In this document: in pieces, positions 9,665 through 59,058 of the stretch
Position numbering within the stretch: the stretch's first letter is position 1
Layout of the letters: each line of letters begins with the position of its first letter
From: Dehalococcoidia bacterium UBA1141
GTDB taxonomy: Bacteria; Chloroflexota; Dehalococcoidia; Lucifugimonadales; UBA3495
Assembly (NCBI GenBank): GCA_002311385.1
Contig: DCAE01000097.1
Coordinates: 2,403 to 66,402 of the forward strand
Reading direction: 5' to 3'
DNA: 64,000 nucleotides
Translations under genes and position numbers: made by a program
Notes under the pieces: model-generated
What the model was told of the DNA's origin: nothing
Seen by the model: only the letters and a program-made list of their open reading frames with translations
The model's database searches: none

Positions 9665-11023
9665 ATGCCGGAGCCGTTCAGCCTAGGTGTGGCCGGAGCA
9701 GCAAAAGATATTAGAGACAAAGGTCTTTCTCCCGTAACCTTGGCGGAATCTTTATTGGACCGCATCGACACCTTGGACCCGGCGCTAAAAGCCTGGGTCA
9801 CCATTGACCGGGAAGAAGTGATTAGCACCGCCCACGAGTTGGAGCAAGAGCTAACTGAAAAGGGTCCCAGGGGACCTATTCACGGTGTGCCGGTGGGGCT
9901 AAAGGACATTTTTTACACCGAGGGAATGCTCACCGCCGCAGGGTCGCGGATTTACGCCGATTTCGTGCCTAAATACGATGCCACCACCGTCACCAAGATC
10001 AAGGAGGCCGGGGGAATCATACTTGGCAAGGCCGTGACCACAGAGTTCGCCATGGCCGACCCTTCGCCTTCTATAAACCCTTGGAACAAGACCCACACTC
10101 CGGGCGGGTCCAGCAGCGGATCGTCGGTGGCGGTGGCTGCCCGCATGTGCGCCGCAGCCTTGGGGTCTCAGACCGGTGGTTCCACCTGCCGCCCGGCGGC
10201 CTACAACGGCATCGTTGGATTGAAAGCGACCTACGGGCGCATCAGCCGCTACGGAGTGGTGCCGGTGAGTTGGTCGTTGGACACCGTGGGCATTCTTGTT
10301 CGAAACGTGGAAGACGCCGCTGTAATGCTTCAGGTATTGGCGGGATATGACGAGAAGGACCCTGGGTCCGCCAATGTGCCCGTCCCTGATTATCTGAAAG
10401 AAATGAGCGAACTGGACCGGCCACCAAGAATCGGCTTGATCAAAGAATATTACTCTGATAAATCCAGCGCAGAAATCTGGAGTCACACACAAGATGTGGC
10501 ACAGCAACTAGCCAAAGCCGGCGCTGATATCGTGGAGATTGGCCTACCCAAAAGCTTTGCCACAGCCCACGACTGCCAGAGAATCGTCAGCAACGTAGAG
10601 TGCGCCGCTTTCCATGAGCAGTGGCACCGGGAGCGTGCCGACGATTATGGAGCGAAGCTGCGGGCGAACATCGAAGTGGGTATGCTCATACCCGGCATAC
10701 GTTACGTTCAAGCCCAACGTCTGCGCCGGGAGTTCCGCCAAGACATGGTGGAGATGGTCAAACAGGTTGATGCCGTGATGACCCCCTCGGCGCCCACACC
10801 GGCCCCCCTTGGCCTGGAGAGCACCGGCGACCCGGCATTTCAGCAACCCTGGACCTCCAGCGGACTGCCCAGTATCGCCGTTCCTTCTGGGATTAACAGC
10901 GACGGGCTACCCTTGTCGGTTCAGTTTGGTGGCCTCCCTTTTGAAGAGGGGGCTCTGCTGGCAGCTGCAAAGTGGTGTGAAAACGCCTTGGGAGTAGAGT
11001 TGTCGCCGCCGGATTTTAGCTAG
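9665..11023 (+). CDS. Amidase-signature (GatA-like) amidase
   Basis: 452 aa with the signature GGSSSGSSVAVAA and flanking KD...TT...GS motifs; AAAGGAGAG SD. Confidence 0.9.
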   Translation: MPEPFSLGVAGAAKDIRDKGLSPVTLAESLLDRIDTLDPALKAWVTIDREEVISTAHELEQELTEKGPRGPIHGVPVGLKDIFYTEGMLTAAGSRIYADFVPKYDATTVTKIKEAGGIILGKAVTTEFAMADPSPSINPWNKTHTPGGSSSGSSVAVAARMCAAALGSQTGGSTCRPAAYNGIVGLKATYGRISRYGVVPVSWSLDTVGILVRNVEDAAVMLQVLAGYDEKDPGSANVPVPDYLKEMSELDRPPRIGLIKEYYSDKSSAEIWSHTQDVAQQLAKAGADIVEIGLPKSFATAHDCQRIVSNVECAAFHEQWHRERADDYGAKLRANIEVGMLIPGIRYVQAQRLRREFRQDMVEMVKQVDAVMTPSAPTPAPLGLESTGDPAFQQPWTSSGLPSIAVPSGINSDGLPLSVQFGGLPFEEGALLAAAKWCENALGVELSPPDFS

Positions 11024-13851: not shown

Positions 13852-15204
13852 TCAGTCCACCGGGGGAAATAGATTCACATCCAAAATGCCCTCGCACCAG
13901 TGGGCGGCGGCCAATAATCCAGCTTCATTGTAGGGTTTGGCTATCAGCTGTATGCCGAAGGGCAATCCAGACTCGCCCAGCCCGGAAGGCATGGTGATAC
14001 AAGGCAGTCCGCAGGATGTCCAAGGGCCTTGAAACATAGTATTCCCTGTGTTGGTCACGTCGGGCAGAGACGGCGTGGGAGTTGAAGGTGTTAGCAAAAC
14101 GTCAGTCTTCTCCGACAACTGATGCATATCGTCGATGAATCGCAGCCTTCGTTCCAGCGCCCGTGAGTAGACTACCGGGTCGGTGGCCAGACCCCGGCCA
14201 ATCATCGCTCTTATGTTGGGTTGATAATCCTGGGCCTGCTTTTCGTACATGGGCTGGTGGAAAGCTGCCCCTTCCACCGCCATGATGACCTGCTGGTCCT
14301 CAATGGCCGTGTCGATGCTGTCAGGCACCGCGATTTCCTCAATCACAGCACCGGCATGGCCGAGTTGCTCCAGAACAGCATCGGTGTGCTTGCGAGTCTC
14401 ATCGCTGGCGTTGTCGAAAAAGAAGCGCCGCAGAACGCCAATGCGGGGCGCTCCCGGTGACTTCAAACCGGCAAGATAATCGGGAACCTCCCGGCGGGAG
14501 GATATAGGGTCATCTCCGTCAGGACCGGCCATGACCTGCAACATCAACGCAGCGTCTTCAACGCTTCTAGTCATCCAACCCACGGTGTCCAGGGACCAAC
14601 TCACCGGTATGACGCCGTGGCGGCTGACCCTTCCATAGGTTGGCTTTAGCCCCACCACGCCGTTGTAAGAGGCTGGCCTGAGCACCGAACCAACCGTTTG
14701 GGAACCCATGGCAGTCGGGCACATCCGGGACGCCACAGCAACCGCCGACCCGCTGCTGGAACCGCCTGGGGTATGGGCGGCGTTCCAGGGATTCAAGGTT
14801 GGCGGCGGGTCCATGCAAGCGAACTCGGTGGTCACTGTTTTACCCAGCATGATGGCCCCGGCGTTTTTCATCAAGGTCACAGTAGTGGCGTCGTATTCAG
14901 GGACATGATTGGCATATACCTTGGAGCAAGCGGTCGTGGGTATCCCGGCGGTAAAGTATATGTCCTTCAGGGCGATGGGCACCCCGTGAAGTGGGCCGAT
15001 GCTGGCGTTCCCTTCCAACTGCCTGAGTTTCTCCTGCGCATCCGATAATACCGAGTCCTTGTCCAAGTAGACCCAGGCATTTAGCTGCGGCTCAAGCTTC
15101 TCGATCCTCTCGAGAAGAGCCTGTACTAGGTCCACGGGGGACAACTGTCGCTCCCGTATCTGCCGGGCAATCTGGGCCACGCCTAATTCATGTAGCTGGG
15201 CCAT
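13852..15204 (-). CDS. Amidase-signature amidase
   Basis: GGSSSGSAVAVAS signature. The start was moved to the ATG at 15204, directly after a GGAGGAGAA SD. Confidence 0.9.
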   Translation of the reverse strand: MAQLHELGVAQIARQIRERQLSPVDLVQALLERIEKLEPQLNAWVYLDKDSVLSDAQEKLRQLEGNASIGPLHGVPIALKDIYFTAGIPTTACSKVYANHVPEYDATTVTLMKNAGAIMLGKTVTTEFACMDPPPTLNPWNAAHTPGGSSSGSAVAVASRMCPTAMGSQTVGSVLRPASYNGVVGLKPTYGRVSRHGVIPVSWSLDTVGWMTRSVEDAALMLQVMAGPDGDDPISSRREVPDYLAGLKSPGAPRIGVLRRFFFDNASDETRKHTDAVLEQLGHAGAVIEEIAVPDSIDTAIEDQQVIMAVEGAAFHQPMYEKQAQDYQPNIRAMIGRGLATDPVVYSRALERRLRFIDDMHQLSEKTDVLLTPSTPTPSLPDVTNTGNTMFQGPWTSCGLPCITMPSGLGESGLPFGIQLIAKPYNEAGLLAAAHWCEGILDVNLFPPVD

Positions 15205-15271
15205 TTCTCCTCCATTGTCGATGGTCGTACGCAAGTGTCTTCCGGCATGGCAACGCAATTTAAGCAAGGGG

Positions 15272-15415: not shown

Positions 15416-16831
15416 TTATATCGGCGTCCTGCGGTTGTGCCAGTCCGTGGCTTGCTCAAAAGAGTGGGCCACTCGGAAAAGGGTTTCCTCGGTAAACGGT
15501 TTGCCTGCCAGTTGAAGGCCTATGGGCAGATTTCCGCTGGTGAAGCCGCAATTTATCGACATTGCTGGCAGGTTGGCCAGGTTGAATGGGGCCGTGAAGC
15601 TGCGCCTTCCGGCATAGCCTTCCAGCACTTCTTCCTTGCTGTTGATGCCCGCTTTGGCCGGAATCAGCGTTGCCGGGACTGACGATGTTGGCATAATCAA
15701 GACGTCGACCTGCTGGAGGACGGCCAGTATTTGCTGGCGCAACATGTCCCTTAGCCTTACCGCTTTCTGGTGGACTCGGGCGGGCACTATGGCCCCGGAC
15801 AGCAACCTGACCCTATTGTTGTGGTCGTACTCACCCAAGTGTTCCGCCATTGTTCGGGCGTGAGGAGCCTGGGCATCCACCATGATCACCGCCGACGAAA
15901 TAACTGCCGACTGGACAATCAATGGGATCGAGACGTCTTGGATTTCCGCACCCAACTCGCCCAGGACGGTGATGGCTCGCTGGACACCCTGCTTCACCTC
16001 CGGGTCCACGGCGTCGGTATCCACCCGTTCGGCTATAACCCCAACTTTCAGTCCTTGGATGCCGCCGTGTAGACCGGAGAGATAATCCGGGACCGGCACG
16101 TTCCACGTGTGAGGGTCCTTGGGGTCATAGCCAGCAATCGCCCCCAAGGTCATAGCGCAATCCGACACCGTGCGGGAGATTGGTCCGACAATGTCCATGG
16201 ACCAAGAAGCTCCCAATACTCCGTAGCGGCTGACCCTACCGTAACTTGGCCGAATGCCAGCCAGTCCGCAAAATGCCGCTGGACCCCGGATTGAACCCCC
16301 TGTGTCCTCGCCCAAAGATGTCGCACAAAGATGAGCCGCCGTGGCTGCTCCCGACCCGCTGCTGGAGGTTCCCGGGTTACGGGACAGGTCCCATGGATTT
16401 CTGGGCCGCCCGTATGGGTGATGAAAAGCGTCGCCCATGGCGTATTCGCTCATGTTCAACTTTCCCAGTACTATTGCACCGGCGTTTTTTAGCTTGGAAA
16501 CCACCGTTGAATCCTCATCCGGCACGAAGTCCTTTAGGATGGACGACCCTCCGGTGGTCAGTATTCCTTTAGTGTTGAACTGGTCTTTCACGCCCACGGG
16601 AATTCCGTGCATGGGGCCGCGGTAGTTGCCAGCGGCAATCTGATCTTCGGCGGAGCGGGCTTGGTCCAACGCCTCTTTCCGGCACACGGTGATATAGGAG
16701 TTGAGCTGGCTGTCCACTGCGTCGATACGGTCTAGATAGGCTTGTGTAGCCTCCACCGAGGAAACCTCGCGTGATTTAATCAGTCCAGCCAATTCGGTGG
16801 CGGTAAAGAAAGGGATCTCGCTTTTTTCCAT
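15416..16831 (-). CDS. Amidase-signature amidase
   Basis: 471 aa with a GTSSSGSGAATAA signature; third amidase paralog within 7 kb. Confidence 0.9.
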   Translation of the reverse strand: MEKSEIPFFTATELAGLIKSREVSSVEATQAYLDRIDAVDSQLNSYITVCRKEALDQARSAEDQIAAGNYRGPMHGIPVGVKDQFNTKGILTTGGSSILKDFVPDEDSTVVSKLKNAGAIVLGKLNMSEYAMGDAFHHPYGRPRNPWDLSRNPGTSSSGSGAATAAHLCATSLGEDTGGSIRGPAAFCGLAGIRPSYGRVSRYGVLGASWSMDIVGPISRTVSDCAMTLGAIAGYDPKDPHTWNVPVPDYLSGLHGGIQGLKVGVIAERVDTDAVDPEVKQGVQRAITVLGELGAEIQDVSIPLIVQSAVISSAVIMVDAQAPHARTMAEHLGEYDHNNRVRLLSGAIVPARVHQKAVRLRDMLRQQILAVLQQVDVLIMPTSSVPATLIPAKAGINSKEEVLEGYAGRRSFTAPFNLANLPAMSINCGFTSGNLPIGLQLAGKPFTEETLFRVAHSFEQATDWHNRRTPI

Positions 16832-31707: not shown

Positions 31708-31806
31708 ACTAGCCCTCCATTTATAATCCCGAGAATCAGTTCCAACTTGCGGGCCATTGTTTCTGGCCCACATGAATAATACATATTGGCGTTGACCGTT
31801 GCCGGT

Positions 31807-32547
31807 TTAGATTACAGCCTTATTCTGATTTACCGTGGACTCGATGGCTTGCTCCCATTCGTCTACGTCCATGAAATGTGGTCCGGCTCCACCGTGATAA
31901 GAAACCTTGCCATCTGCGCCCACCACGTACAACCGCACCGGCGCCGCTCCGTAGGCCTCGTCGATAACGTTGTCCATTTCCTCAATCAAAGTGGGAATGG
32001 ACATTTTCATCTCCAAAGTACAGGTATTGGCCACTTGGTCCCGTTCCTCGAAAGATTGATGTTGCCTGAAGAGAACGGAATCTTCCAAGTTGCTGTCCAC
32101 CTGCCAACCGTCGGTGGGGTGGGCCTCCCGAACGTAAACCAAGAAGAACTCCACTTGGTCCCCGAAGCGGTTATAAATTTCTTCCATGTGCCCCACCTGG
32201 GCGCGGTAGGGGGGTCAAGTGTAACTGCCGAACACCAAGGCCACTGGCTTCTTTCCTCTGAAGCTGGACAATTCAACCTGTTCACCGGTGCCCATCCTCC
32301 GCAGTTTGAAATTGGGCGGAACCTCTCCCTCATTCGGACCCATGTCGTTCCTGCGCATCACCGCGTCAAGCCGTGTCTGAAGCTCTGCGGAGCAGTCGTT
32401 TTTACGCTCCGCCAATATGTCTTGCTTGGATCTTGCGCCGCCGGAGGACTTGGCTTCGGATTTAATCTCTTGCATAATCTGGCCAAAGTCAGCCCTGACG
32501 TCATTGCTCATGGTGCTCATGACTTTGTCTCTCTCGATCTTGTCCAT
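31807..32547 (-). CDS. Iodothyronine deiodinase-like thioredoxin-fold protein with in-frame TGA (predicted selenocysteine) at 32217-32215
   Basis: Track ORFs 32215..32547 and 31807..32196 are in frame with only the TGA between them. Read-through gives KPVALVFGSYT-[TGA]-PPYRAQ...VREAHPTDGWQ, matching the deiodinase active-site FGS.TUPPF and EAHPSDGW motifs. Confidence 0.8.
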
Positions 32548-32611
32548 CCTGCTGGCTCCTATCCAATCGATTTCCGACGCGATTGTCCCCAGTGTTAGCT
32601 AGTAAGTTTGG

Positions 32612-40079: not shown

Positions 40080-40312
40080 ACATAAATCCTGTGTGTGAAT
40101 TCTATAAATATCCCGGTGTTTGACCTGGAATATCAGCCTATTGGCGTGGTGTGTTAGACTCTTCGCCAACTGGTGATTCTACTCACCGAGTCAATCAGAT
40201 ACGCCGACTGAACCCATATAATATACGCACCGTGCCTTGTTAGGTAAACCATGTGAACGACGCCAGTACCATGTACCAGGACCGTGTGCCAGAACCAATT
40301 AAAGGAGGATTC

Positions 40313-41116
40313 ATGGAGACAGTACGCCTGTTGGAAGAGCACGAGTTTCCTCAAGAACTCCAGAAATACTTCGAGGGGACCAAAACCTGGTTCGGCATAG
40401 ACTATCTTCCCAAGATGAGCAAGGTCATCTCCTATGCCCCGGAGTTCGCCAGTACCCACGGGCGTTGCAGCCGCCGGGCGATGGTGGACGGAGACCTGAC
40501 GCGAGCGCAGAAGGAGATGATTGCTGTTGCGGTCAGCGCCGTCAACGCATGTGAATATTGAACCGTAGCTCATACCACAGCCGGGAAGCTTGTGGGTTAT
40601 GGAGACGACGCATACTGGTATGAAGCCGCCTACGTCTATGGTGTTACCAACGGCATAAACGCAGTTGCCGACGGACTGCGACTACCTCTGGAGAATTCGG
40701 ACACACCAGCCAGAAAGCCCCTGATCATGCCCATCGAGTTCGAAGAGGCCTCCGATAGAGTGAAGGACACCTACTCGGACATCATGACCTTTTATCAGTC
40801 CGAGCAAATCCCTGCGATTTTCAAAACCCTGGCCCACGACGATGGATATTTGAAAGATTATTGGGGAGCGGTACGATTCGTGTTCAGCGATGGCAGGTTG
40901 GACCGTTTGACCAAAGAGACTCTCGCCTTTACTGCATCAATGGCGGCCAAGTCGGACTACGGCGTGGACTTTCATTTGACCGAAGCCCGGCGTCTCGGAC
41001 TCAGCGAGAAGGGTGTCATGGAAGCGGTGCAGGTGGTCCAACTATTTAGTTGCTACACCAAGATGGCGGATGGCCTTCAACTCAGCCCTGATTTCGACCC
41101 CATGGGCGTCACTTAG
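40313..41116 (+). CDS. Two-domain AhpD/carboxymuconolactone-decarboxylase-family protein with in-frame TGA (predicted selenocysteine) at 40559-40561
   Basis: Track ORFs 40253..40561 and 40592..41116 are in frame with only the TGA between them. Read-through gives AVSAVNACEY-[TGA]-TVAHT, the AhpD core motif S..N.C.YC...H with the second Cys at the TGA. An AAAGGAGGA SD precedes the ATG 40313. Confidence 0.8.
40571..40601 (+). promoter_or_regulatory. Candidate bacterial SECIS hairpin downstream of the TGA
   Basis: CATA-CCACAG-[CCGGGAAG]-CTTGTGG-(GT)-TATG: about 10 bp of bulged stem starting 10 nt after the TGA. The G-rich apical loop lies about 22 nt from the U of UGA. Confidence 0.45.
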
Positions 41117-41137
41117 GGACCTTTTCCACCGCAGAGG

Positions 41138-41183
41138 CGCAGAGAACGCAGAGATTTTCAGATTTCTCTCTGCGTTCTCTGCG
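41138..41183. terminator. 17-bp perfect hairpin between convergent genes (putative bidirectional terminator / REP-like)
   Basis: CGCAGAGAACGCAGAGA (41138-41154) pairs with TCTCTGCGTTCTCTGCG (41167-41183), with a 12-nt loop. There is no U tract. Confidence 0.5.
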
Positions 41184-41212
41184 GTGATAACGCCGTATTC
41201 CGCTTACCTGGG

Positions 41213-42484
41213 TCAATGGTCAAGCGACATTAGCTCGTCCCACCGGTGGTAGAAGCGCCGGTGGTTGCTTTCGCTCATAGCGTAATCGCTGGCCCAGCCG
41301 CCTAGCGCCGAATCAAAATGGTCGTGACCCAGTCCCATCTGGTTGTTCAAATCCACTCGCTTGGCCATAAAACCCTTGCTGGTGCCAGTGCATTCTTGCC
41401 AGTTGTCCATGTCGTCTTGCTCGAATGTGCCAGCCGGACTGTGGGCCCGAACGGACGCCAGCCTGATGGCTTCTTTTACTTCCGGGGGAGCGTCCCTGTC
41501 CACGTAGCTAAAGGCCCAAATCTCAATCTGTCCAGGACCTTTGGGATGCAAAACCCGAAATTGCTGGGCGATAGTGCGAATCATCCCGAAGTTGGGGAAA
41601 ACAGTGCCAACAATAGGGTTGGCCAATTCCCAACGTTTGCCTAAGCGATGTTTCGCTTCCTCCCGAACGGAATCTTCATAACCTTTGATTTGAGGCACTG
41701 CAGCCTCGGAAAACTCACCCGCGCCCCGAGATATCAAGCAGTGCCCATTACCCGGAGAGATTATCTGTCCCTGCAAGCCGGAACCCCGCTGCTGCCGGTT
41801 GCGGGACTCGGAAGTGGTGCCAGTCTTAAGGGCGGACAGGTGGCTCCATGCCACATGATAGGAATCACCGGCGAAGTTCTCGGCGGGAAATTTCCAATTT
41901 GCGGGCACCACCGACTTGTGAACCCAGCCAATCACCTCAACACCGCCTTCCCGGCGTCCGAAAAAGGCATCCAAGTACCAGGTCATCTCGCCTAGATATT
42001 CCCGCAACGGAGGCGCATCCGCATCGAAGGTGGCGAAAAACAGGCCATTGTAGCTGTCCAGTTGAGCCACCCGAGAAAGGCCCCATTTACCCAATTCCAA
42101 TTTTTCGTAGTATGCGTCTTTCAGGTTGGGCACCGCTACCAGGCTGCCGTCGTTGCTATAAGCCCAACCATGGTAGGAGCAGGTAAACGAACTGGCATTG
42201 CCAGAGTCTGCCCGGCATAGGCGGTTTCCTCGGTGGCTGCAGATATTTAGAAAGGCGTTTACCTTGCCTCTCCTGTCACGCACAACCAAGACCGGGTCTT
42301 CTCCCATGTAGGTGGTGAAGAAGTCTCCAGGTTTGGGGATTTGAGATTCATGGCAAAGGAACAACCAGCACCGGGCAAAGATTCGCTCTAATTCCTGCTG
42401 GTATATGTCATTCTCGACGAATATTCGCCGGGACACCAGGCCGTTTTCGGTATCCACCAACCCCTTGGTATCCATCGCCATCAC
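41213..42484 (-). CDS. Rieske (2Fe-2S) aromatic ring-hydroxylating oxygenase, alpha subunit
   Basis: Rieske motif CSHRGNRLC...CSYHGW and a catalytic domain with a DSYHV..SH iron-ligand region. Paralog of 57796..59058. Confidence 0.9.
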
Positions 42485-57795: not shown

Positions 57796-59058
57796 TTGAA
57801 TACAAAAAGCTTGATTGATTCCGAAAACGGCCTAATTGACCGGCGGATTTACGTAGAGCAAGACATCTACCAGCAGGAGTTGGAGCGAATTTTTGCCCGC
57901 TGCTGGCTGTTTCTCTGCCACGAGACTCAGATACCCGAGCCCGGAGATTTCTTTACAACATATATGGGCGAGGACCCGGTGTTGGTGGCCCGAGATACCA
58001 AAGGCAAAGTAAACGCCTTCCTGAATGTCTGCCGCCACCGGGGCAATCGTTTGTGCAGGGCTGAATCCGGGAACGCATCGGCCTTCATTTGCTCCTATCA
58101 CGGTTGGGCCTACGGGAACGATGGTGGCTTGCAGGCGGTGCCGAGTCTGAAAGACGGCTATCGTGAACAGCTGGACACCAAGGAATGGGGCTTGTTTCCA
58201 GTTGCCCAGATAGACAGCTTTTGCGGGTTGTATTTCGCCACATTCGATGCTTCCGCACCCCCGTTGCTTGACTACTTAGGCGAGATGGCCTGGTATATCA
58301 GGTCGGTATTCGACCGGCGCGAGGGTGGTGTGGAGATTATTGGCGGCATGCATAAGTGGATTATTCCGTGCAATTGGAAATTTCCTGCGGACAATTTCAT
58401 CGGCGATAGCTACCACGTGCCTTGGACCCACCTTTCGTCAATCAAGTCAGGATTCGCTGGAACGTTCCGATTGGGTCAAGGCACAGACGGCGTTCCGGTT
58501 ACTACGGGCAATGGCCATGGAGTTCTTACGGCCAATCCCTTGGCCTCTATACGACCGCCGATGCCCGAGATACTAGCATATGAGGAGCAGACCCTGGCCG
58601 AGACACAAAAGCGTCTGGGACCGAAGGCCAGTTTGCTCCAGACAACCGTGGGCACCGTCTTTCCCAGTTTTTCCATGCTCAGGGCCAATGCCAACAGTTT
58701 TAGGGTATGGCATCCATTGGGCCCGGACAAAACCCTGGTCTGGGAAGGCACTTTTGTGGACAAAGCGGCTCCTCCCGAAGTCAAAGAAGCATACCGATTG
58801 ATTGCCGTACAGGGCACCGGTCCATCCGGCACATTCGAGCAAGATGACATGGATAACTGGCAAGAATGCACCGTCACAGCCAAGGGTGTAGTCTCTCGCC
58901 GCTATCCGATGAACCTCCAGATGGGCTTGGGTCACCAGCAGTATAAAGAGGAGCTGGATTCTTGGGCCAGCGGGTTTAAGTTCAGCGAAGATAACCAAAG
59001 GGAATTCTACAAGCGTTGGTCCGAAGTGATGGACGCTGCCGATTGGAACGAACTATAA
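57796..59058 (+). CDS. Rieske (2Fe-2S) aromatic ring-hydroxylating oxygenase, alpha subunit (paralog of 41213..42484)
   Basis: CRHRGNRLC...CSYHGW Rieske motif. The N-terminal ~110 aa are nearly colinear with the other copy. TTG start after GGGAG. Confidence 0.9.

Follow-up and report, generated by a model that had tools for sequence, protein, structure and literature searches.

Where does the AhpD-like gene that starts at position 40313 end: at the in-frame TGA of its codon 83, or at the TAG of 41114-41116? The gene lies on the plus strand of a 64,000-nucleotide (nt) stretch of contig DCAE01000097.1, from Dehalococcoidia bacterium UBA1141, the whole of which is called the window here. Judged from its sequence, 40313-41116 very probably encodes one protein of the AhpD/CMD superfamily, a predicted functional selenoprotein in which the UGA of codon 83 would be read as selenocysteine (Sec, U). 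A preliminary description of this DNA had taken a Sec codon as the simplest reading, which is now supported by the conservation of the TGA across relatives, by homologs carrying cysteine at this place and by the constraint acting on a hairpin just downstream.

A reading frame that continues through TGA

Translation of 40313-41116 (+) gives 267 codons and a stop, in a single open frame with one internal stop, TGA 40559-40561. The list of open reading frames (ORFs) splits the gene into 40253..40561 and 40592..41116, which lie in a common frame; list and translation thus agree with the earlier statement that this TGA alone separates the two. The residues around it read ...IAVAVSAVNACEY*TVAHTTAGK, or in a longer context ...QKEMIAVAVSAVNACEY*TVAHTTAGKL. 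The ATG at 40313 is considered the true start, since a Shine-Dalgarno sequence read from the DNA, AAGGAGG (40302..40308, +), precedes it by 4 nt and since orthologs share the METVRLL N-terminus. The complete coding sequence (CDS) of the predicted two-domain, 267-residue selenoprotein is accordingly 40313..41116 (+). Its active-site signature can be read directly as E68-x11-C80-x2-[TGA]83-x3-H87, a perfect AhpD motif E-x11-C-x2-C-x3-H in which the TGA occupies the place of the second redox cysteine, as first noticed in the preliminary description. The Glu68 codon (40514..40516, +) opens this signature, the CxxU redox pair is encoded by the TGT of Cys80 (40550..40552, +) and, for its second residue, by the predicted Sec codon (40559..40561, +), and the His87 codon (40571..40573, +) closes it. 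Because this last codon is located 3' of the TGA, a product ending at the TGA would be devoid of His87.

Relatives of the gene were collected by one scan of species-representative genomes, which returned a Dehalococcoidia chromosome (L001, 91% amino acid identity) and a Tectomicrobia metagenome-assembled genome (MAG; L002, 72%), and by one metagenome scan (tblastn), which added 80 further loci. Nearly all the metagenome matches span residues 1 to ~263. The resulting ortholog set consists of 82 loci from other assemblies, with 54-99% identity, and its codon alignment contains 81 unique coding sequences; the source names of the relatives include Dehalococcoidia, Tectomicrobia, NC10, Rokubacteria and Nitrospinota. 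The codon aligned to position 83 is TGA in 80 of the 82 orthologous loci and TTA in one (L013); one more (L046) has there an in-frame stop of which the three letters were not read, and TGC or TGT is found in 0/82. All four signature positions are conserved over the 81 aligned orthologs, with Glu68, Cys80 and His87 each present in 81/81. Three much more distant, single-domain AhpD genes (L003, L005 and L006) also have a C-x-Y-TGA motif. A one-base difference would be enough to turn TGC or TGT into the TGA of the window by a sequencing or assembly error, but the same TGA is also present in contig L007, which shares 99.6% nucleotide identity with the window, in L001 and in 78 other independent assemblies, with TGC or TGT in none of them. 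The probability left for such an error is close to nil. The possibility of an assembly error, raised in the preliminary description, is indeed ruled out by the sharing of this codon among 80 independent assemblies, and so is a pseudogene.

The TGA could also be a genuine stop, the locus being then either a pseudogene or the source of two polypeptides, one of 82 amino acids (aa) and one of ~174 aa starting from GTG 40592. This is how the gene appears in the five public gene-call sets inspected (L087-L092; NCBI, ENA and JGI records), which all split it into an 82-aa product and a 149-189-aa "CMD family protein", exactly the mis-annotation as two fragments that had been anticipated. Most database "proteins" are such fragments, and TGA serves as a regular stop for other ORFs of the window. 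A pseudogene, however, would not keep the TGA, the flanking frame and 54-99% protein conservation in 80 loci across phyla. With two polypeptides, the catalytic signature would be split, His87 being downstream, and residues 84-93, between the TGA and the putative restart, are conserved as protein. No conserved restart can be recognized: codon 94 is GTG only in the clade of the window and CAA/CAG in 76/81 sequences, gene callers choose varying starts that yield fragments of 149-213 aa, and the GGGAAG of the hairpin loop lies 3 nt from GTG 40592, too near to serve as a ribosome-binding site. Termination at codon 83 as the normal fate of this message looks thus very unlikely.

A protein search returned 390 homologs. 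Among the 120 listed, nearly all are 150-200 aa long and cover just the C-terminal ~65% of the query, which is the footprint expected from gene callers halting at a conserved TGA. When the exact 82-aa N-terminal fragment was searched with phmmer against 1.84 billion representatives, many clusters, at most 50% identical to one another, were found to stop exactly at residue 82, and these are truncations. Homologs ending at the TGA had been named beforehand as a possible objection; the public "proteins" that do so can be attributed to gene calling, the DNA being open and conserved in frame beyond this point in the 82 loci. The sole "full-length" homolog among the matches listed (P0052) was considered as a cysteine form and discarded, since it is Arg-rich and garbled over the junction, as in a frameshift-type call.

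True cysteine forms were found by the same phmmer search and run through the site, with NGCDYCTSAH in P0156, NNCSYCIDAH in P0168, NGCEYCINSH in P0176 and NGCHYCLSAH in P0174. Structures in the Protein Data Bank (PDB) give the same picture. The 2ouw chain aligns with residues 1-128 over the TGA, placing NSCSYCAHSH opposite NACEY-U-TVAH, and 2pfx and 6k40 likewise have a cysteine opposite U83. For the AhpD of Mycobacterium tuberculosis (1gu9/1knc, E = 0.003), query residues 61-115 align to chain residues 111-164, which by coordinate arithmetic puts C80 opposite Cys130 and U83 opposite Cys133. The alignment of cysteine homologs across the junction, proposed as a check in the preliminary description, is thus obtained with both the PDB cores of AhpD type and the four phmmer sequences. 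These cysteine homologs are more distant and mostly single-domain; a cysteine-containing member of the two-domain group was seen neither in the 82 orthologous loci nor among the 120 listed of the 390 matches.

As a side observation, P0135 and P0164 are two-repeat relatives with the reverse domain order, where the degenerate repeat is N-terminal and the C-terminal repeat ends in ...SAVNACEY or ...NACFY, which is where the called protein stops. This suggests Sec-truncated proteins with the active repeat in second position.

A constrained hairpin downstream of the UGA

The mRNA following the UGA can form a hairpin with a short spacing. Its core (40575..40595, +) consists of CCACAGC, a CGGGAA loop at 40582-40587, and GC-(bulged U 40590)-UGUGG, with 7 bp and a loop beginning 20 nt after the UGA; the 24 nt of 40574-40597 fold at -8.6 kcal/mol (z = -1.4). 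The minimum free energy (MFE) structure is an extended hairpin at 40563..40602 (+), which adds a lower stem to the apical one and reaches -16.2 kcal/mol (z = -2.3, 48 nt), this lower stem being unsupported across orthologs. Both are in good agreement with the bulged hairpin described previously at 40571-40601, with a loop at about 22 nt.

The apical part is common to the whole group. All orthologs have a GCAGC-CGGGAA-GCUGC hairpin at nt +19 to +34 from the U of the UGA, and the clade formed by the window, L001 and L007 has a variant, CCACAGC-CGGGAA-GC(U)UGUGG, that still pairs (one lineage). Over 60 distinct orthologs the apical stem is 98.3% paired, a figure that falls to 1-53% if its 3' side is shifted by 1-3 columns.

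Stronger evidence comes from the codons themselves, as measured by the codon entropy within the majority amino acid in the 81-sequence codon alignment. Among the 39 conserved four-fold columns, where the mean is 1.28 bits, zero entropy is found only at codons 89, 90 and 91; among the 44 conserved two-fold columns it is found only at codon 92, and the lowest of the 28 conserved six-fold columns is codon 93, with 0.23 bits. These five codons, GCA GCC GGG AAG CTG, are those of the hairpin, and they form the only stretch of the gene with essentially no synonymous variation. The first of them is particularly telling: at codon 89 GCA is found in 78/78 cases, although no other Ala codon is used so seldom elsewhere (104 occurrences, versus 1049 of GCC and 925 of GCG). 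Since synonymous change is abolished only at the hairpin codons, selection bears on the RNA rather than on the protein. The conservation of the hairpin in orthologous loci, on which the preliminary description had made its proposal depend, is thus observed, together with a suppression of synonymous change unique to its codons. An internal ribosome-binding site was also considered as the origin of this synonymous constraint and rejected, codon 94 being CAA/CAG in 76/81 sequences and the spacing just 3 nt.

The hairpin can be compared with the published limits for the bacterial Sec insertion sequence (SECIS), namely a loop of 3-9 nt, an upper stem of 4-16 bp, a UGA-to-loop spacing of 16-37 nt and an MFE of at most -7.5 kcal/mol, with a G required within the first two positions of the apical loop (PMC13188914). 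The values found here, a 6-nt loop, a 7-bp stem, a 20-nt spacing and -8.6 kcal/mol, all lie within these limits, and the CGGGAA loop has a G at position 2, followed by another G. The core motif occurs only once in the window. By analogy with the standard bacterial mechanism, this hairpin within the coding sequence would act as a SECIS, to which SelB carrying Sec-tRNA(Sec) would bind, so as to deliver Sec to the ribosome instead of letting translation terminate.

Probable selenocysteine decoding and the surroundings of the gene

The genetic code of this organism is the standard one. TGA terminates 11/40 of the main ORFs of the window (TAG 16, TAA 13), in line with what had been stated beforehand, and since it serves there as an ordinary stop, a reassigned code is excluded. 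When the window was scanned for same-frame ORF pairs split by one TGA, a second gene of the same kind came out, 8 kb away from the AhpD-like gene. It encodes a 246-aa, deiodinase-like protein of thioredoxin fold (31807-32547, -), with its TGA at 32215-32217 within the motif FGSYT-U-PPY, and it matches the T4_deiodinase profile over the TGA (2.8e-30, 105.8 bits). Full-length homologs (P0187 and P0201) have FGSYTCPPF at this position, while its close homologs are ~136-aa post-TGA fragments. The best candidate for its SECIS, the hairpin CCCUACC-GCGCCCA-GGUGGGG, has its loop just 10 nt past the UGA, and the fold of this 60-nt stretch gives z = 0.07. The gene is overlapped by an ORF of 270 aa on the other strand (31786..32598), which is probably spurious.

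The best match in the genome scan, L001, is the Dehalococcoidia chromosome OY761986.2, which is syntenic with the window at ~75-77% nucleotide identity. In BSepDB, the corresponding isolate (10f4566d-ab44-49ae-b774-fc9f760c6436) is credited with 46 selenoprotein genes, among the ten highest numbers listed, and a species is counted there as Sec-using only if at least two of SelA, SelB and SelD are present (PMC13326102). The deiodinase-like gene and this Sec-using syntenic relative are two independent proxies that support Sec decoding in the organism of the window, and the AhpD-like and deiodinase-like loci together would mark it as a Sec user.

Several observations weigh against reading codon 83 as Sec and have to be set beside this evidence. 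On the side of the codon, it is TTA in L013 (1747-1749; metagenome contig Ga0126383_10078265), and the site has TGG in P0122 and P0150 and Gly in P0144, three sequences which look error-ridden or degraded. On the side of the RNA, the 67 nt after the UGA (-16.5 kcal/mol, z = -0.58) do not fold better than shuffles and the 24-48 nt folds do so only modestly (z = -1.4 to -2.3). Folding energy alone being not significant, the RNA argument rests on conservation and not on thermodynamics. RNAalifold detects no compensatory covariation (0) in the five core pairs, which are essentially invariant and hence uninformative in this respect. The lower stem (columns 7-14 with 41-48) was tried as a conserved feature and abandoned, as it is 70.6% paired and its covariation was reached by 133/500 shuffles. 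The CGGGAA loop also deviates from an optional sub-pattern of the SECIS model, N1-G-[G/U]-N-N2 with N1 and N2 paired. As for the decoding apparatus, neither selA, selB nor selD was found among the 19 flanking or large ORFs scanned with Pfam, which include amidases, dnaG, a sigma-70 factor, a GlmU-like gene and a Rieske oxygenase, among others; tRNA-Sec is absent from the 64-kb window, whose sole tRNA is a tRNA-Ala, with no other Rfam match. Lastly, across the window and five other contigs no neighbour is conserved and no partner emerges.

Two of these points, the TGG codons and the lack of visible Sec machinery in the window (19 ORFs scanned, tRNA search), would also fit a read-through of the UGA that does not involve Sec, through near-cognate insertion of Trp or Cys or through a code in which UGA is sense. 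Such a reassignment is nevertheless at odds with the use of TGA as the end of well-supported ORFs, and a Trp in place of the redox-active cysteine of a CxxC motif would leave the protein without its chemistry; the sequences with TGG are moreover short, and look error-ridden or affected by deletions. Read-through without Sec would in addition leave aside the SECIS-type hairpin, which stands at a canonical distance and under selection at the RNA level, the second thioredoxin-fold gene of the window with a TGA at the position of its active-site cysteine, and the catalogued use of Sec in the genome of the syntenic relative. It is thus highly improbable, and Sec insertion remains by far the preferred reading of codon 83.

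The TTA of L013 could be explained by a sequencing error or by a natural loss of Sec. A locus from a sibling sample, L012, matches L013 over the compared junction region, but has retained the TGA.

The AhpD-like gene appears monocistronic, with a 143-bp intergenic region upstream and an inverted repeat downstream. This perfect 17-bp repeat, CGCAGAGAACGCAGAGA / loop / complement (41138..41183), is located between the convergent AhpD-like (+) and Rieske oxygenase (-) genes, and its arm is unique in the window. The 96-nt intergenic region that includes it (41117-41212) folds at -40.9 kcal/mol, with z = -4.77. Lacking a T-run, the repeat escaped the terminator scan; it is probably a shared bidirectional transcription terminator.

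The neighbours of the gene differ from one contig to another: a Rieske oxygenase and an S-adenosylmethionine (SAM) methyltransferase in the window, CoA-transferases and a dienelactone hydrolase in the Tectomicrobia MAG, an enoyl-CoA hydratase in one of the other contigs and an ECF sigma factor in another. In L091 (NC10 MAG JACPGW010000120.1, 1-8549), the ortholog is found just 3' of genes for a MerA-like reductase, MerT, MerE, MerF, MerB, MerR and a redoxin. This mercury-resistance cluster was seen beside the ortholog only in L091 and may be a coincidence.

More broadly, the window covers a catabolically rich, Dehalococcoidia-like region, which also contains dnaG and a sigma-70 gene. Three paralogous amidase genes are found within 7 kb, at 9665-11023 (+), 13852-15267 (-) and 15416-16831 (-), with Pfam Amidase E-values of 1e-97 to 1e-119, and near them lie a Rieske oxygenase, a luciferase-like monooxygenase, a phosphotriesterase and a gene of metallo-beta-lactamase fold. 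A blastn search of the L001/L007 flanks also matches the window at ~57797-58935, with 67-79% identity and on the opposite strand, versus 41213-42484. This indicates a second, paralogous gene of putative Rieske-type oxygenase in the window (ORF 57796..59058).

Domain architecture, proposed chemistry and known systems

Profile searches were run on the read-through protein with Cys at codon 83. The Pfam CMD model (PF02627, cut-off 23) gives 71.7 bits over two segments, of which the first (residues 51-94) crosses the TGA; this is the outcome looked for when a search of the joined protein with this profile was suggested. The AhpD core domain model TIGR00778 (ahpD_dom) is matched with 58.3 bits (cut-off 27.8). 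In contrast to these two models, the curated subfamily models are not reached. TIGR01926 ("peroxidase-related enzyme") gives 59.7 bits, below its cut-off of 81.8 and for residues 4-90 only, so that the gene is not placed in this subfamily. Scores well under the cut-offs, which correspond to local, motif-level matches, are obtained with the NF041238 AhpD_rel_CFYUT (seleno)protein (40.4 bits, cut-off 175), NF041047 GSU3128 family (12.9 bits, cut-off 110) and NF041537 ArsM/AhpD selenoprotein (36.3 bits, cut-off 510) models. The protein looks thus like a member of an uncurated two-repeat subgroup.

The second AhpD/CMD repeat, at residues ~180-255 (40850..41077, +), is a degenerate one, where E202-x11-S214-x2-G217-x3-H221 replaces the redox motif. 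The C-terminal fragment alone scores 35.7 bits against Pfam CMD, and when this repeat is aligned to the AhpD core of 2ouw, SMAAKSDYGVDFH stands opposite STANSCSYCAHSH, with S214 and G217 at the two cysteine positions. No variation is seen in 20 sequences at E202, S214, G217 and H221. The 267-aa protein with two tandem CMD domains, the second one devoid of the Cys pair, is thus recovered as first described. A likeness of the C-terminal half to (R)-2-haloacid dehalogenases of DehI type was also examined and set aside, being at the superfamily level only, while the AhpD core aligns better, with Ser and Gly for both cysteines.

The chemistry proposed for this protein follows from its signature. 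Sec83 would take the place of the second cysteine in E-x11-C-x2-C-x3-H and form with Cys80 a selenenylsulfide/selenol-thiol redox couple, with a proton relay provided by the retained Glu68 and His87. The C-terminal repeat, which has lost both cysteines, probably serves as a structural pseudo-dimer partner. Cys133, to which U83 is equivalent in position, is the attacking nucleophile in the AhpD of M. tuberculosis, so that Sec would replace the nucleophile, as in most selenoenzymes. The protein would most likely be a thiol/selenol oxidoreductase, for example a hydroperoxide or disulfide reductase.

To a specialist this will not come as a surprise, since neither the family nor the CxxU motif nor the mechanism of decoding is new. 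What is mildly unusual is that no Cys orthologs are apparent in the two-repeat subgroup and that its SECIS core is nucleotide-invariant across phyla. A tentative and rather doubtful proposal would be that the two-domain form is an obligately Sec-dependent subfamily, with an active CxxU repeat and a degenerate E..S..G..H repeat. It is suggested by the lack of a Cys ortholog in 82 loci from at least five phyla, together with the nucleotide invariance of the SECIS core GCAGCCGGGAAGCUGC in these loci. As for context, one NC10 locus lies beside a mer operon, and others are found amid aromatic or CoA-transferase catabolic genes. If this proposal held, Cys could not substitute for Sec in the chemistry and the substrate might differ from that of classical AhpD. 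The same observations could also mean that the gene has spread together with its SECIS, as a unit transferred horizontally between Sec users of soil and sediment. The near-absence of Cys forms, combined with the invariant SECIS, provides a modest lead on the question of when Sec is indispensable and when it is merely advantageous. The practical value lies in the correction of gene calls, hundreds of database entries of the family being fragments without part of the active site. A Dehalococcoidia genome to which the organism is related is also one of the richest in selenoproteins among the bacteria catalogued.

Selenoproteins of this kind have been known for some time, as already pointed out in the preliminary description. 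AhpD-like (27 sequences) and CMD-domain (4 sequences) selenoproteins, both of CxxU type, were reported in the Sargasso Sea selenoproteome in 2005 (PMC1088965). The larger families of the GOS selenoproteome of 2008 (PMC2398784) include "AhpD-like 1" (COG2128, 299 sequences) and "AhpD-like 2" (pfam02627, 70 sequences), the latter being enriched in non-marine samples. AhpD-like/CMD-like selenoproteins are listed again in a 2026 AEM review, which gives TIGR01926 as the model for "AhpD-like protein" selenoproteins (PMC13188914), and in BSepDB (PMC13326102). The protein of the window shares with them the PF02627 domain, Sec as the second residue of CxxU, a SECIS directly downstream within the CDS, widespread Cys homologs and the routine mis-annotation of the genes as truncated. 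Unlike the known CxxU families, the group of the window has two repeats within 267 aa, of which the N-terminal one is active and the C-terminal one is degenerate (S214/G217).

The comparison with the AhpD of M. tuberculosis (1KNC, 1GU9, 1ME5) reveals the same E-x11-C-x2-C-x3-H signature, in spite of a marginal similarity (E = 0.003) and of the predicted Sec at the place of Cys133. The active repeat is N-terminal in the protein of the window, whereas the motif is C-terminal in M. tuberculosis AhpD (residues 130-137 of 177). Both proteins presumably have two helical repeats per chain, with the redox motif in one only. No AhpC or lipoamide-system partner is encoded nearby among the window ORFs scanned. 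The closest solved structures are 2OUW and the "peroxidase-related" 2PFX, 2OYO, 2PRR and 6K40, single-domain CMD proteins with a CxxC motif. In contrast to the protein of the window, this 2OUW group carries Cys, with functions mostly uncharacterised, and 2ouw itself is a single domain of 138 aa.

At the RNA level, the hairpin resembles the bSECISearch consensus, of which E. coli fdhF is the prototype, by its small apical loop with an early G followed by G or U. Its bulged U also recalls the E. coli fdhF element. Unlike the consensus bacterial SECIS, the core found in the group of the window, a predicted binding site for SelB, is unusually nucleotide-invariant across phyla.

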